This document shows, piece by piece, positions 3,861-8,988 of a stretch of DNA of 64,000 nt (position 1 is its first letter; each line of letters opens with the position of its first letter). The notes beneath the pieces were generated by a model that had not been told where the DNA came from, made no database searches, and saw only the letters and a list, made by a program, of their open reading frames with translations. The DNA comes from Escherichia phage OliverMaurmann_Bas86, in the sequence record PQ850622.1. One strand, given 5' to 3'. The translations under genes were made by a program, and so were the position numbers.

Positions 3861-4097
3861 ATGAATACAAGACAGCAATTCAATAAAGAGCACGCCGCCG
3901 CTTTGGCGGCTCTCAATCACAACGGCATTCTTGACGCAGCATTAGAGGCATTGAAAGAAACCCTCATGAAAGATATCGTACTAACCGAGGCTCATGAGAA
4001 TAAGAAACGCGAAGAGTGTTATCAAAAGTATAAAATGGTTGGTAGCTTAAAAGAGGTCATAAAAGCTGCTATCAATAATGCAGGAGATAATTCCTAA
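3861..4097 (+). CDS. Small hypothetical head-module protein
   Basis: 78 aa ORF with RBS, between portal and scaffold. Confidence 0.4.
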   Translation: MNTRQQFNKEHAAALAALNHNGILDAALEALKETLMKDIVLTEAHENKKREECYQKYKMVGSLKEVIKAAINNAGDNS

Positions 4098-5179
4098 TGG
4101 CAAATGATTATATTGACCCGAACGATTTTAAATCTTTCCTCCAACTAGACGACTTAAAAGGTTCCTTCAAAGAAGAGCTTAGTCAATTAGAATCAGAACG
4201 TGAACCAGAAGTGAACATTGATGATGAATTCCCAGAACAGTCTGAGACTTTTGATCTTGATGCTTCCGACCTTCTCGGTGATGACGATACGTTAGCGTTC
4301 GAAGATGAAGATGGTTGGGAAGATCGTGAAGAGGAAGGCGAAGAAGAAGAGGAAGAGTCTGAGTTCTCTGATGAAGAAGATGAAGAAGATGATTCCGGTG
4401 AAGCAGGTCACGATGAAGCTGCTAACAGTGATGAAGATGGCGAAGAAGGCGAAGTCTTTGACGTAGATTACGAAACTGTTATCACCCTTCCTGATGGTCG
4501 TGAGATGACTATTGAAGAGTTGTCTAATGGCTATCTGACTGGTGCAGAAATGTCCGAACGTGAGACTACTTTGCAGCGTCATGTTGAAGCTTTTGAAGAA
4601 CGTGTTTCTGGTTTGGGTGATGTATTAGAACTAGCTGCCCTAGAAGCAGACCGAGTAATTGAAGATTACAACGGTTTTGATTGGGACAAACTCGCACAAG
4701 AAGATCCTCAAGCTTATGTAGAAAACAAACGTTTCTTAGAAAAGTATACAGCTCGTCGCCAACAGCTTGAACAAGCTCAGCTTAAAATCAAGCAGGAAGC
4801 ACAAGCAAAAGAACAACAGCTCTTCCAAGCTAAATGTACCGAATGTGTAAGCGTACTTAAACGTGAGATTCCTAATTGGGATGACAACTTGTATCAGAAC
4901 CTGATGCAGTATGCAATCGACTTAGGTGCTACAGAAGAAGAAGTGCTGAAAGAGAACCGTCCGTCAATTTTCCTAGCTCTGCACAAAGCATACCAATTTG
5001 ATAAAGGTAAGCAGCAAGTGATGGCTAAGATTAAACGTCCCGGCTCTCCACGCAAGGTTGTGAAGTCCGATGCTTCTAAGTCTCGTTCTTCCAATACGCC
5101 AGACAACGCTAAGGTTGCCAAGGCATTCTCAGAGGGTCGCATTCGTCACGAAGACGCATTTAAGTATCTCGTAGATTAA
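4097..5179 (+). CDS. Scaffolding protein (putative)
   Basis: 360 aa, strongly acidic (long E/D runs), helical/coiled-coil C-terminal half, immediately upstream of major capsid gene. Confidence 0.6.
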   Translation: MANDYIDPNDFKSFLQLDDLKGSFKEELSQLESEREPEVNIDDEFPEQSETFDLDASDLLGDDDTLAFEDEDGWEDREEEGEEEEEESEFSDEEDEEDDSGEAGHDEAANSDEDGEEGEVFDVDYETVITLPDGREMTIEELSNGYLTGAEMSERETTLQRHVEAFEERVSGLGDVLELAALEADRVIEDYNGFDWDKLAQEDPQAYVENKRFLEKYTARRQQLEQAQLKIKQEAQAKEQQLFQAKCTECVSVLKREIPNWDDNLYQNLMQYAIDLGATEEEVLKENRPSIFLALHKAYQFDKGKQQVMAKIKRPGSPRKVVKSDASKSRSSNTPDNAKVAKAFSEGRIRHEDAFKYLVD

Positions 5180-5219
5180 TCGACAAATTTATTTTTAATA
5201 GTATAGGAGCTAATATAAC

Positions 5220-6278
5220 ATGGCAAATCCAACTTTATTTGTATCGTACGACCAGAATGGTAAAAAACTTTCTTTTGCTAACTGGATTTCTGTCCTGTCT
5301 CCGCAAGACACTCCGTTTGTGTCTATGACTGGTAAAGAGTCTATTAACCAGACTATTTTCAGCTGGCAGACCGATGCTCTGGCGAGCGTAGATGCTAACA
5401 ACGCCCACGTCGAAGGCTCTCGTGCTGAAGACGGTGAAATGAAACCGACTGTAATCAAGTCCAACGTTACTCAGATTCTGCGTAAAGTTGTTCGTGTTTC
5501 TGATACTGCTAACACCACCGCTAACTACGGTCGTGGTCGTGAGCTGATGTATCAGCTGGAGAAGAAAGGTAAAGAGATTAAGCGTGACCTCGAGAAAATC
5601 TTGCTGTCCGGTCAGGCTCGTACCGACATTCTGGCAGACCAGTATCTGACTAACTCTGCAACTGATCCTGCTGTTGTAGGTCAGAACGATACTTCAGCTG
5701 CACGTAAGACTGGTGCTTTCCAGTTCCTGTGTGCACACAATGGTGTTGCTGGTGGTGTTGTTAAGAAAGAAGATGGTCCTGCTGACCCGGATACCGGTGC
5801 AGTAACTGTTAAAGTTGCACAGAATGCTTCTAACCCGACTTCTAACATCGGTTTTGATGAAGCTGACATCTTTGATATGACTCTGCAATTGTATACCGCT
5901 GGTTCTGAAGCAGACATCATCATGATTAACCCTGCTCACGCTAATATCTTTGCTAAGCTTCAGGAAAACTCTGTTGGTTCTCGTCAGCGTATCTTTGAGA
6001 ACACCAAACAGTTCATCTATGAAGTTAACAGCATCACTGACCCGCTGGGCCAGAGCTATAAAATCATCGTTAACCGTTGGATGCCTGCTGATGCAGTTTA
6101 CTTCTTCCGCAGCTCTGACTGGACTCAGATGGTTCTTCGTGCTCCGAAACGTACTGAACTGGCGAAAGATGGTTCTTACGAGAAATGGATGATCGAAATG
6201 GAAGTTGGTCTGCGTCACCGCAACCCGTATGCTTCCGGTGTACTGTTCACCGCTGCGGGAAAGGTGGAAGCGGCGTAA
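5220..6278 (+). CDS. Major capsid protein
   Basis: 352 aa ORF following scaffold; strong RBS (TAGGAGC); size and position typical of HK97-fold capsid protein. Confidence 0.8.
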   Translation: MANPTLFVSYDQNGKKLSFANWISVLSPQDTPFVSMTGKESINQTIFSWQTDALASVDANNAHVEGSRAEDGEMKPTVIKSNVTQILRKVVRVSDTANTTANYGRGRELMYQLEKKGKEIKRDLEKILLSGQARTDILADQYLTNSATDPAVVGQNDTSAARKTGAFQFLCAHNGVAGGVVKKEDGPADPDTGAVTVKVAQNASNPTSNIGFDEADIFDMTLQLYTAGSEADIIMINPAHANIFAKLQENSVGSRQRIFENTKQFIYEVNSITDPLGQSYKIIVNRWMPADAVYFFRSSDWTQMVLRAPKRTELAKDGSYEKWMIEMEVGLRHRNPYASGVLFTAAGKVEAA

Positions 6279-7642
6279 CAGTAGATTCCGTAACTGTTAG
6301 TCCTTCGTCGGTTGCAAGCCTTCCGACGGGGGCTACTCAGCAGTTTACAGCTACAGCAGAAATGAGCGACGGCTCCACAAGCACAACCGGATTTAATTGG
6401 TCCGTTGAAGGCGGTGGGGCTGTTTCTGTTTCTGGGCTATATACTGCACCGAGTGCGTCGCAAGAAACCCCAGCAACTATTACGGCAACTAAGGGCAGTA
6501 AAACAGGTACTGCTACAGTTCAATCTGTTTTTGAACCTGCTACTATCGAAGCTAAAGCCAACATCACAGGCAAGGTTGGTGGAAGCACTACAGCCTTTAC
6601 TACAATGTTCACATCAACTAATTCTTCGGCAGAAGATTATTCTTTTGTTGTGTCTCCAACATCAGCAGGAACTGTCAGTGCAGCAGGAGTTTTAACTTTG
6701 AGTAACAATGCAACAGGTACAGTTACTGTTAAAGCTACCCATAAAACTCAATCAGGAGTTGAAGCCACTGTAACCTTTACAGGTGTTGTTGCCAAAGCGG
6801 CTATTACTGGAAAAACAGTCACGGGTAAAATTGGGGGCGATACTGTTGCGTTTGCTGATCTATTTACAGCAACAAACTCTTCCGCAGCCAATTACAACTT
6901 CGTAGCTAACCCTTCTGGGATGACTACCTCTATCAACACTAACACTGGACTTGTTACTTTATCGGCTAATGCTACAGGTGATGTAACAATTACAGCTACC
7001 CACAAAACTCAAACCTCAGTTACTGCTACAGGGACCATCAGTGGTGTAGTCCCTAAAGCCACTATCACAGGTAAATCTCTTACCGGTAAAGTTGGTGGTG
7101 ATGTGATTCCTTTCGCGGACATGTTCACCAGTAACAAACCAGCATCAGAATTCAACTACGTGTTGACTCCGACTGGTGATGTAGGTGAAATTAACACTAC
7201 TACAGGTGCACTGACTCTCTTAGATGCTCCTACAGATGAGCTTATTAGTGTTAAAGCTACCCATAAAACTCAAACTTCTGTAACGGCAACCGCTACAATC
7301 ACAGCTACTCCGAAACTTACGGGCCTCGTTGCTTCTAGTGTTTCTAATACTGTGGTCGTAGGTGCTCCAGAGAACCCTCTTGCTACAGACTCCATCACAA
7401 TCACTGACTCTACTCAACCGGGTGTAGTTCGTTTTGATGGTGTACCTCAGGGTTCAGTAGTTGGTGCTCTGTCTTATGACGCAGAAGGTACTGATGTGGG
7501 TTTGATGGAAGTTGATTTAACAGGTCAGGTGTTGACAATCACTTTATCAGCTCCGATTACCAGTGAAGATACTAAAATCTCAATCAGAACTAACCCAGCC
7601 TCTACAATATTCCGTACTTATGTTGTCAAGTCTGGTGCTTAA
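5220..7642 (+). CDS. Capsid protein with C-terminal Ig-like (Big_2-type) extension, predicted product of -1 programmed ribosomal frameshift at GGGAAAG (6257-6263)
   Basis: Slippery heptamer G_GGA_AAG lies in the capsid frame 5 codons before its stop; the -1 frame is open to 7642 and encodes Ig-like repeats (VTVDSVTVSPSSV...TGATQQFTATAEMSDG...). Confidence 0.5.
6550..7320 (+). repeat. Three tandem coding repeats (~80-87 codons each) inside the Ig-like extension
   Basis: Protein repeats each ending ...ATHKTQ(S/T)(G/S)V(E/T)AT... and beginning (A/P)KA.ITGK...; in-frame, not CRISPR-like. Confidence 0.6.
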
Positions 7643-7647
7643 AACTA

Positions 7648-7675
7648 AGGCTGCCTTCGGGTGGCCTTTTCTCAT
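7648..7675 (+). terminator. Rho-independent terminator (UUCG tetraloop hairpin + T-run)
   Basis: AGGCTGCC-TTCG-GGTGGCCT followed by TTTTCTCATTTT, just after the Ig-extension stop. Confidence 0.55.
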
Positions 7676-7742
7676 TTTAAGACCCTTATAAGGAGATATG
7701 TAATGTATTCTCTTTGTCTATACACAACTAGGAGGACAAGTT

Positions 7743-8255
7743 ATGGCAATGCCTGACTTAAAGGGTGTTTTTACTTATAACCAAGACACTGGACACCTCT
7801 TTTGGTCTATGAGTAATGTTTATAATAAGAAGAAAGGACAGAGAGCTGGTTGCATTAATAACAAAGGCTACAGAGTTCTGACCTTTAAAAATAAATCTTA
7901 TTTAGAGCACAGAATCATTGCAGAGTTATTCTTACCTAAAGTGGAAGGAAAGAATCAGATTAATCATAAGAATGGGATTAAGGATGACAACCGCCTAGAA
8001 AACTTAGAATGGTGCACAGGTAGTGAGAACTGCTTACATGCTATTAGTATAGGTCTTAGAGAAGTGAAAAGTTTAGAGGAAAATCCAAACGCTAAACTTT
8101 CTAAAGAGGATGCTCTATTCTGTCTTCAGAACTATAAGCCTAGAAGCCGTCAGTTCGGAGCTAGAGCATTGGGTCGAAGATTTGGAGTATCTAAAAGTAC
8201 AATCAGCCTTCTTGTGAAAGGCGAAAACTGGAAGGAGTTATTATATGATGCCTGA
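7743..8255 (+). CDS. HNH homing endonuclease (HNH_3-type with N-terminal Y..DTG.L.W motif)
   Basis: 170 aa; motifs GYRVLTF...HRIIAELF...INHKNGIKDDNRLENLEW; preceded ~40 nt upstream by TAATGTATT. Confidence 0.8.
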   Translation: MAMPDLKGVFTYNQDTGHLFWSMSNVYNKKKGQRAGCINNKGYRVLTFKNKSYLEHRIIAELFLPKVEGKNQINHKNGIKDDNRLENLEWCTGSENCLHAISIGLREVKSLEENPNAKLSKEDALFCLQNYKPRSRQFGARALGRRFGVSKSTISLLVKGENWKELLYDA

Positions 8256-8988
8256 TGTTCAATATCCCATCAATACCTACGGATGGCTCAAGAAAGCTGT
8301 GTCCCTCTGGGCTGACAGGGATGATGATGAATTTGTTAATCAGATTCCAAACTTTATTAACTTTGCAGAGAAAGAAATCTATCGTAACTTACGAATTCCT
8401 CCTCTGGAAAAAGAAGTATATTTAGATATTAAAGATGGTGTGGCTTTTATTCCACCAGACTACTTAGAAGCTCAGTGGATGATGAGAGCAAGTAATGGAC
8501 ATATGTTCCGAGTAACTTCTCCAGAAGAGTTAGATTGGCTGAAAAGAAATAACTCAGTAAACCCAACTAACTGGAATCAGGGAGAAGTGAGTTTTACTAG
8601 GTTGGGAAGTCGGTTCCTGTTCTACCCAGCCATCAATGCTGATACTCCGGTCTACCCTGATGATGGAAGCCCTCTTATTCCAGCGGAGAATTCGGTAATT
8701 CTTAGCTATTATGCAGACCCTCCGGAGTTTCATGAGGATTCTGATACAAGTGCAATTTTAACAATAGCTCCAGAGCTTCTTCTATATTTCACATTACGTC
8801 ATGCAAGCTTATTTGTCCAAGATGATAATGGGGTTCAGAAGTGGTCTGCTTTAGGGAAAGCTATTCTAGATGAGGTAGTTGAGCAGAGTAAGAAAGCTGA
8901 ATACTCAGGCTCTCCTCTAGTTATTCCTAGAACTATTGACCGTCTTCACAGCTCTCGTGAGTTGTATGGAATCAAACACTACAGTTAA
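8245..8988 (+). CDS. Virion structural protein (function unassigned)
   Basis: 247 aa ORF with GAAGGAG RBS, between HNH insert and tail fiber genes. Confidence 0.45.
   Translation: MMPDVQYPINTYGWLKKAVSLWADRDDDEFVNQIPNFINFAEKEIYRNLRIPPLEKEVYLDIKDGVAFIPPDYLEAQWMMRASNGHMFRVTSPEELDWLKRNNSVNPTNWNQGEVSFTRLGSRFLFYPAINADTPVYPDDGSPLIPAENSVILSYYADPPEFHEDSDTSAILTIAPELLLYFTLRHASLFVQDDNGVQKWSALGKAILDEVVEQSKKAEYSGSPLVIPRTIDRLHSSRELYGIKHYS

Follow-up and report, generated by a model that had tools for sequence, protein, structure and literature searches.

The window analysed here, a 64,000-nt stretch of the genome of Escherichia phage OliverMaurmann_Bas86 (sequence record PQ850622.1), contains on its + strand a major capsid protein gene at positions 5220–6278. 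The product of this gene, the short isoform of 352 aa, was assigned from the open reading frame and from Pfam to the HK97-fold capsid proteins of SU10 type (PF17236, SU10_MCP; E=7.2e-79, 265.8 bits), and the gene after the next one downstream encodes an SU10-type adaptor (Pfam SU10_adaptor). The end of the capsid gene is overlapped by an open reading frame in the −1 frame, at 6185–7642. About 125 phage records match the region, most of them from E. coli podophages of the Kuravirus group, including phiEco32, SU10, Paul, YF01, EP335 and the BASEL phages Bas87-89; the source phage is a Kuravirus-like E. coli podophage with a prolate head (phiEco32/SU10 group, Gordonclarkvirinae). Just past the stop codon of the −1 frame, a terminator scan found an intrinsic-terminator-like hairpin followed by a T-tract (+ strand, 7647–7678; 9-bp stem with 5 GC pairs), and a terminator is annotated at the equivalent place in the records of Paul and SU10; a promoter scan inside the region gave none above the shuffle expectation.

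A −1 slippery heptamer, G_GGA_AAG, is read from the sequence at 6257–6263, in the X_XXY_YYZ phase of the capsid frame and 19 nt before the TAA at 6276 that ends the short isoform. In all of the 15 genomes compared (the window and 14 relatives) GGGAAAG is found in phase, 16-19 nt upstream of the capsid stop, and 14 of them have an open −1 frame starting there; the exception is SU10, where it is truncated 13 codons past this point. In the window the −1 frame extension covers 6257–7642 on the + strand, with 461 codons after the slip and a TAA at 7640–7642, and the predicted long isoform would be 807 aa in length. Conservation of the −1 frame at the protein level reaches as far upstream as the slip site.

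Long capsid isoforms are already documented in this group. The RefSeq record of phage Paul contains a joined CDS annotated with a frameshift at GGGAAAG, and its note adds that the PhiEco32 major capsid product is frameshifted as well; the slip site is also described for YF01 and Privateer. The YF01 paper describes short and long capsid isoforms, the long one having 892-894 aa in the case of YF01 and Paul but only about 500-550 aa in other phages, points out the truncation in SU10, and quotes frameshift efficiencies of about 3.5% for λ G-T, which uses the same heptamer, and of about 10% for T7 10B. The minor capsid protein of the Proteus phage Privateer was seen in virions by SDS-PAGE and MS, according to the Privateer paper, which in turn cites the detection of the minor capsid protein in phiEco32 and SU10. 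The original prediction had assigned the repeats described below to an extension of the capsid protein, an assignment upheld by the overlap with the SU10_MCP gene, by the in-phase heptamer in 15 of 15 genomes and by the frameshift published for the group. As a separate observation, a related metagenomic phage reaches the two-isoform state by duplication of the capsid gene instead of by frameshifting.

Downstream of the slip site, RNAalifold on 10 genomes identified a conserved RNA hairpin at 6292–6345 (+ strand), with a core stem CGTCGG/CCGACG at about 6305–6332; three of its pairs hold through two-sided changes, with GC, AU and UA all represented at one of them. The hairpin is a possible frameshift stimulator. 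A role as a canonical stimulator was rejected, since the hairpin lies about 28-42 nt from the heptamer, too far in comparison with the classical spacing of 5-9 nt, and it is not counted as a component of the proposed mechanism.

The extension consists, in the AlphaFold2 (AF2) model, of five β-sandwich domains, which are in order a Big_2 domain (D0), three repeat units (R1, R2 and R3) and a distal Ig-like domain. The model, which covers 459 residues after the slip and was built with 36 aligned sequences, is all β and has a mean pLDDT of 92.5; its strand blocks comprise residues 7-86 for D0, 94-176 for R1, 180-263 for R2, 268-349 for R3 and 354-457 for the distal domain. D0 and its linker occupy 6263–6550 on the + strand, as delimited by Pfam PF02368 and the AF2 strands. 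The match of D0 to Big_2, at about 6281–6520, reaches 31.5 bits (E=1.7e-7) and is above the gathering cut-off of 22.8 bits. The distal domain is found at 7313–7642 on the + strand (109 aa plus the stop codon); it is modelled as a fifth Ig-like β-sandwich, unrelated to R1-R3, with nine strands, a pLDDT of 87.2 and a pTM of 0.81, and has no match in Pfam or PHROG. Its closest folds in the PDB, with weak E values of 2e-3 to 4e-3, are those of titin Ig domains and of the C-terminal Ig-like domain of gpV, the tail tube protein of lambda (7t4f, 2l04).

The three repeat units follow one another without interruption at 6551–7312, in the frame of the + strand ORF 6185–7642. R1 (6551–6790) has 80 codons, while R2 (6791–7051) and R3 (7052–7312) have 87 codons each; all three lie on the + strand, are modelled as Ig-like β-sandwiches and are supported by alignment, BLASTP and the AF2 model, and R2 by PHROG as well. 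At the protein level R1 and R2 are 57.5% identical, R2 and R3 52.3% and R1 and R3 45.6%, and BLASTP with compositional adjustment relates the same pairs with E values of 1e-24, 3e-25 and 8e-15, respectively. The alignment of the three units has 28 invariant columns, including ITGK..GG..F..F, P, G..TL and ATHKTQ. The three tandem coding repeats of the original prediction were thus recovered at the claimed positions and with the claimed shared motifs. The self-dot-plot that had been proposed as a check (BLOSUM62, 25-residue window) also revealed significant internal repetition: its top diagonals are at offsets of 87, 85 and 172-174 aa, with scores of 99, 89 and 64, while in 200 shuffled sequences of unchanged composition the best score averaged 37.9 (sd 4.5) and never exceeded 55.

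At the DNA level the picture is different, since the units share only 54-58% identity, and the longest exact run common to the repeats is of 25 nt (6727–6751 = 7249–7273), coding for VKATHKTQ. Tandem Repeats Finder, run on 5500–8500, returned nothing relevant, because the units are too diverged in their DNA. R1-R3 are a diverged domain repeat at the protein level and not a DNA tandem array.

Assignment of the repeat units to the Ig-like folds relies mainly on predicted structure, sequence support being marginal. The Big_2 scores of R1 (20.9 bits) and R2 (18.4 bits) fall under the cut-off, and R3 has no Pfam match. PHROG 13745, annotated as 'Ig domain containing protein', matches the extension in three stretches with E=1.4e-84, and PHROG 33551 matches it with E=4.2e-17; R2 alone is matched by PHROG 13745 with E=1.9e-16. 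R1-R3 form a subfamily of their own (PHROG 13745/33551), with the signature ITGK-GG-F-MFT...P...G-LTL...KATHKTQ. Sequence comparison of the whole extension with the PDB gave only one match, which was spurious (E=1.5), and a profile of 21 non-redundant units gave marginal matches (E=0.017-0.06) to the Ig-like domain of T5 pb6 and to intimin. When the profiles of the repeat family and of the Big_2 family of D0 were compared, the result was not significant (E=0.052, probability 1%); hence, no descent of R1-R3 from D0 is claimed.

Foldseek of the extension model against the PDB gave 142 matches at E <= 1e-3, with multi-Ig proteins on top; tandem-Ig proteins were matched with E values from 1e-15 to 1e-8 and a probability of 1.00. 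The matches include nuclear pore gp210-type chains, cadherin ectodomains, titin I65-I70 and DSCAM, as well as S-layer proteins, the Ig domains of the SU10 nozzle and the tetra-repeat of an Aeromonas RTX adhesin, composed of extender domains; Big_2 pairs of Leptospira LigA are matched with TMt of 0.56-0.60 and 24-25% identity. Among viral models, the capsid protein of Paul, the Ig protein of SGF2 and many Ig-bearing tail and head proteins of phages are matched best; the last group includes the major head protein of Salmonella phage 7-11, which is prolate. The Ig-like nature that had been proposed for the repeats is accordingly supported by structure prediction, through the model confidence (pLDDT 95-98 in R1) and the Foldseek matches to titin, cadherins and LigA, with marginal support from Pfam.

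The number of repeat units, counted with an HMM of the unit, varies among the relatives in the comparison that the original prediction had suggested. One unit is found in phiEco32, NJ01 and E20-1, two in EP335, HC-25922, Ptacy1479 and AnnaHegner, three in the window, KarlSchell, SGF2, SR02 and StefiGeyer, and four in Paul and YF01. The same range of 1-4 units occurs in 35 protein clusters obtained from genomes and metagenomes, six of which have one unit, nine have two, eleven have three and nine have four. Presence or absence of the distal domain among the relatives is independent of the unit count, and in one sub-lineage D0 is followed by a second, inserted Big_2-like domain.

The units of different phages can be paired position by position. 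R1 is orthologous to unit 1 of six phages, including KarlSchell, EP335, HC-25922, SGF2 and SR02 (91-98% aa identity), R2 to unit 2 of KarlSchell and SGF2 and to unit 3 of Paul (82-98% identity), and R3 to unit 3 of KarlSchell, unit 4 of Paul and unit 2 of EP335 (91-100% aa identity). Since the units are orthologous position by position, R1-R3 derive from old duplications that predate the divergence of the compared phages. A recent duplication in situ and concerted evolution were both rejected, orthologues being 82-100% identical between phages versus 46-58% for paralogues within a phage. Differences in unit number are sharply bounded: EP335 compared to the window has an exact gap of 261 nt, equal to one unit, and lacks R2, while Paul has an exact insertion of 258 nt at the R1/R2 boundary. 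Alignments of this type indicate that units are gained and lost today as exact whole in-frame blocks of 258-261 nt.

The extension and the genes around it have different histories. The scaffold gene, the capsid body and the adaptor of the window are 97-100% identical to those of AnnaHegner_Bas87, HC-25922 and E20-1, with 97-98% nt identity for the capsid gene alone to the MCP genes of the same three phages. The whole extension is instead 97-99% identical at the nt level to that of KarlSchell_Bas89, a phage that in its scaffold, capsid and adaptor genes has only 80-89% identity to the window. The window is thus mosaic, with an extension cassette from a lineage different from that of the flanking capsid genes. 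The original prediction had also described the region as recombination-prone; this holds for the insertion and deletion of units and for the exchange of the cassette, but not for homologous slippage between the present repeats, which at 54-58% nt identity are too diverged. A broader reading, in which the extension is an 'Ig cassette' that moves horizontally and evolves by dynamics of its own, swapped among Kuravirus lineages without regard to the capsid body and tuned in length by steps of one domain (1-4 units, plus or minus a distal binding domain) to host surfaces or mucosal niches, can be offered only tentatively, and we regard it as somewhat doubtful. The bounds of such a cassette appear to be the slip site and the start of Big_2 on one side and the terminator on the other. 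If stalk length and the distal domain did control adsorption or retention in mucus, these phages would provide a simple natural capsid-adhesin system and a ready display scaffold.

Two alternative accounts concern the nature of the repeats and of the reading frame that carries them. The composition of the repeat region is biased, and no DNA repeat is detected by Tandem Repeats Finder, so that the repetition could be seen as a by-product of a low-complexity sequence rich in Thr, Ser, Ala, Gly and Val and not as a series of homologous domains. However, shuffles that keep the composition reach at most 55, versus 89-99 at the expected offsets, BLASTP remains significant after adjustment for composition (8e-15 to 3e-25), each of the three units is modelled as a separate and confident β-sandwich, and each has same-position orthologues in other phages with 82-100% identity; a low-complexity origin is refuted by these data, and its probability is negligible. 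A second account considers the ORF as an independent gene that starts at the internal ATG at 6362, whose free product would decorate the finished capsid non-covalently, as T4 Hoc and the Epsilon15 minor capsid protein do. Indeed, most database records report a separate CDS ('Ig domain containing protein'), gene callers yield a product of 426 aa, and the SU10 structure paper raised the possibility that gp10 is a minor capsid protein of low affinity. Yet the ATG at 6362 is not preceded by a Shine-Dalgarno sequence (AGTTTACAGCTACAGCAGAAATG), and its Met is replaced by Leu or Lys in StefiGeyer, AnnaHegner, E20-1 and phiEco32, three of which lack any in-frame ATG over the following 600 nt or more. 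Moreover, a start at 6362 would remove the first strands of Big_2, as the Pfam match begins at about 6281, some 80 nt upstream, and in 14 of 15 genomes an open and conserved −1 frame extends back to the in-phase GGGAAAG; the frameshift product was also reported in virions of relatives. An independent gene is therefore considered very improbable, and the identification of ORF 6185–7642 as a predicted frameshift extension of the capsid protein is strongly supported by the sequence, the virion product being known from the literature on relatives. Accordingly, the split into a capsid protein and a truncated 'Ig domain containing protein' would be wrong in most records and in all metagenome gene calls.

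A third account accepts the long isoform and gives it a structural or assembly role, in head length, in reinforcement or as a spacer between particles, with Ig repeats that have no binding partner outside the virion. The Ig-like fold is a generic scaffold, and the extension, which is not known to bind a ligand, is carried by the protein that builds an unusual prolate head (Tend = 4, Tmid = 20). On the other hand, SU10, in which a 1-nt insertion truncates the extension 13 codons past the slip site, still forms a normal prolate head with 715 MCP copies. Close relatives differ freely in the number and content of their domains, having 1-4 units and either possessing or lacking the distal domain and the extra Big_2, which is unexpected for a part that fits a fixed lattice, and the cassette has been exchanged independently of the capsid body. 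A structural role is for these reasons judged unlikely, though less so than either of the former accounts; the normal head of SU10 fits an accessory role of the extension at the surface. The cryo-EM study of SU10 found no extra density attributable to capsid-associated Ig domains, as its extension is truncated.

The explanation that we consider probable is that of a long isoform, produced by −1 frameshifting, which carries a multi-Ig stalk on the head surface and may mediate weak adhesion. Most ribosomes translating the capsid gene would stop at the TAA at 6276, while a minority would slip by −1 on G_GGA_AAG (6257–6263), the Gly and Lys tRNAs re-pairing on GGG_AAA, and would read the −1 frame to 7642 to give the 807-aa isoform. 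This isoform would co-assemble with the short one and account for a minority of roughly 715 subunits, if the number in SU10 applies; at the efficiency of λ (about 3.5%) or of T7 10B (about 10%), some tens of stalks per head could be expected. Each long subunit may then project a flexible multi-Ig stalk outward from the head, in which R1-R3 would be mainly spacer or extender modules, their number setting the reach of the stalk. The most likely role of the stalk would be weak multivalent binding to carbohydrate-rich surfaces, of the host envelope or of mucus. Adhesin-like decoration, as put forward in the original prediction, is a reasonable reading if T4 Hoc and the BAM model are taken as analogues. 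In K1F, Ig-like adhesins engineered onto the frameshifted minor capsid protein confer adherence to epithelia, which indicates that display through a capsid frameshift works. Conversely, mucin and heparan-sulfate binding by the Kuravirus ES17 was attributed to the tail fibre and not to an Ig domain, and this counts against a mucus-binding role specifically for the capsid Ig domains.

The repeats are thus real and well explained, and belong to a kind of feature already known for this phage group, so that the finding is an ordinary one. Ig-like domains appended by frameshifting to the capsids of phiEco32-like phages have been described since 2008, and such features were described in general terms by Fraser et al. 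2006, as cited in later papers; moreover, a cassette identical in architecture is already carried by the deposited KarlSchell_Bas89. The published descriptions consulted speak of 'an Ig-like domain' and of differences in length, and the unit-wise repeats, the series of 1-4 units and the cassette swap were not found in them. These three aspects are incremental additions to a known feature. The natural series, which runs from 1 to 4 units and has forms both with and without the distal domain, could be used for testing the role of the capsid Ig stalk. Kuraviruses serve in work on phage therapy directed at pathogenic E. coli, and their capsid extension is a tolerated site for surface display.

The closest known systems are the long isoforms of other Kuraviruses and related phages (phiEco32 gp11/12, Paul YP_010674326, YF01 WBF05044 and Privateer), which share with the window the SU10-type capsid protein, the distance of GGGAAAG from the stop, the Big_2 domain in first position and the family of repeat units. 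Units 3 and 4 of Paul are 82-94% identical to R2 and R3 of the window, and the extension of KarlSchell_Bas89 has an identical architecture. The only differences are in module count, which is three here, one in phiEco32, two in EP335 and four in Paul and YF01, and in the combination of the cassette with an AnnaHegner-like backbone. At the level of single domains, the Big_2 proteins (intimin/invasin, LigA, T5 pb6 and the C-terminal domain of lambda gpV) are resembled through the bona fide D0, the near-threshold R1 and R2 and the fold match to LigA; R1-R3 differ from this family in scoring below the Pfam cut-off, with R3 undetected. The distal domain resembles the C-terminal Ig-like domain of lambda gpV.

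Genes 10A/10B of T7, T3 and K1F likewise use a programmed −1 frameshift near the end of the capsid gene to produce a minor, C-terminally extended isoform that co-assembles with the short one, and this site has been used for surface display; however, capsid family, slip sequence and extension are different. In T3, according to the YF01 paper, the extension is an Ig-like domain, whereas here it comprises five β-sandwich domains in 461 residues. T4 Hoc also presents tandem Ig-like domains from a phage head, is dispensable for assembly and has been proposed to bind glycans weakly. Hoc is nevertheless a separate decoration protein that docks through its own C-terminal capsid-binding domain, a type to which the extension of the window does not correspond; here the string of Ig domains is predicted to be joined covalently to the capsid protein by the frameshift.

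Comparison of the window over 4097-8988 with related phages revealed a mixed pattern of identities: the scaffold gene, the capsid body and the adaptor gene are 97-100% identical to those of AnnaHegner_Bas87, HC-25922 and E20-1, while the -1 frame extension of the capsid gene shares 97-99% identity with KarlSchell_Bas89, a phage whose genes flanking the extension are only 80-89% identical to the window. The breakpoints in identity are located close to the slip site at one end and to the stop of the extension at the other; on sequence identity, the capsid module of the window is a mosaic. The repeat-unit subfamily of the window is also matched in Pantoea phage SSEM1 (34189-34374) and Erwinia phage Y2 (34352-34537), with 52-53% identity over about 61 residues (matches H62-H63 and H68-H69; E = 1e-4 to 3e-4), in proteins annotated as 'Ig domain containing'. 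These are unrelated phages, named in their records with the myovirus 'M' tag (vB_PagM, vB_EamM); the presence of the same subfamily in such phages suggests that the Ig unit has been exchanged between phage groups.

Two RNA hairpins are found on the 3' side of the slip site. The larger one (6292-6345, + strand, core stem about 6305-6332) is conserved, and changes on both sides maintain three of its pairs; one pair varies among GC, AU and UA, where a synonymous third-position change in a Ser codon co-varies with Pro/Leu/Glu replacement. Its distance from the heptamer, 28-42 nt, is too great for a classical -1 stimulator. The second (6277-6298, AACAGT...ACTGTT) is small and fully conserved, and it overlaps the stop codon of the capsid gene. 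In SU10 (about 2661-2700 of record L011), a 1-nt insertion within the small conserved hairpin just 3' of the capsid stop shifts a TAG into the -1 frame, 13 codons past the slip site, so that the extension is lost, in agreement with the YF01 paper; this loss explains why no Ig density is present in the SU10 cryo-EM map.

Directly 3' of the extension stop, an intrinsic-terminator-like hairpin, AAGGCTGCC-TTCG-GGTGGCCTT, is followed by a T-tract (7647-7678, + strand); a terminator is annotated at the matching position in the Paul and SU10 records. Between this terminator and the adaptor gene, the window carries an inserted ORF for a 170-aa HNH_3 endonuclease (7743-8255, + strand; PF13392, E = 1.3e-12), which overlaps the start of the adaptor gene by 11 nt; in 14 relatives the same gap measures only ~100 nt. 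Among the matches, the insert is present only in phage PAS59 (74% identity), the remaining ones covering the flanks alone; the insert has the appearance of a free-standing homing endonuclease of sporadic occurrence.

Among the records compared, a joined CDS for the long capsid isoform is found only in Paul and YF01. In database records L001, L002, L004, L005 and L007-L014 and in proteins P0001-P0033 it is divided into a 'major head protein' and a second product, truncated at its 5' end and called 'Ig domain containing protein', 'hypothetical protein' or, in one record, 'hemagglutinin', a splitting that is a systematic annotation error.

A different arrangement is found in a metagenomic relative, ENA ERZ28615730 scaffold_9219 (L015, 996-3506), which encodes two SU10-type capsid paralogues in tandem, with 71% identity. 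The short one has 315 aa; to the long one (P0034, 501 aa), one repeat unit and the distal Ig-like domain are fused in frame. The two genes are separated by a terminator-like hairpin and an RBS, two more Ig-domain genes (Ig_3, Big_2) are located 3' of them, and GGGAAAG is absent from the whole contig. Here gene duplication, not frameshifting, gives the same two-isoform outcome.
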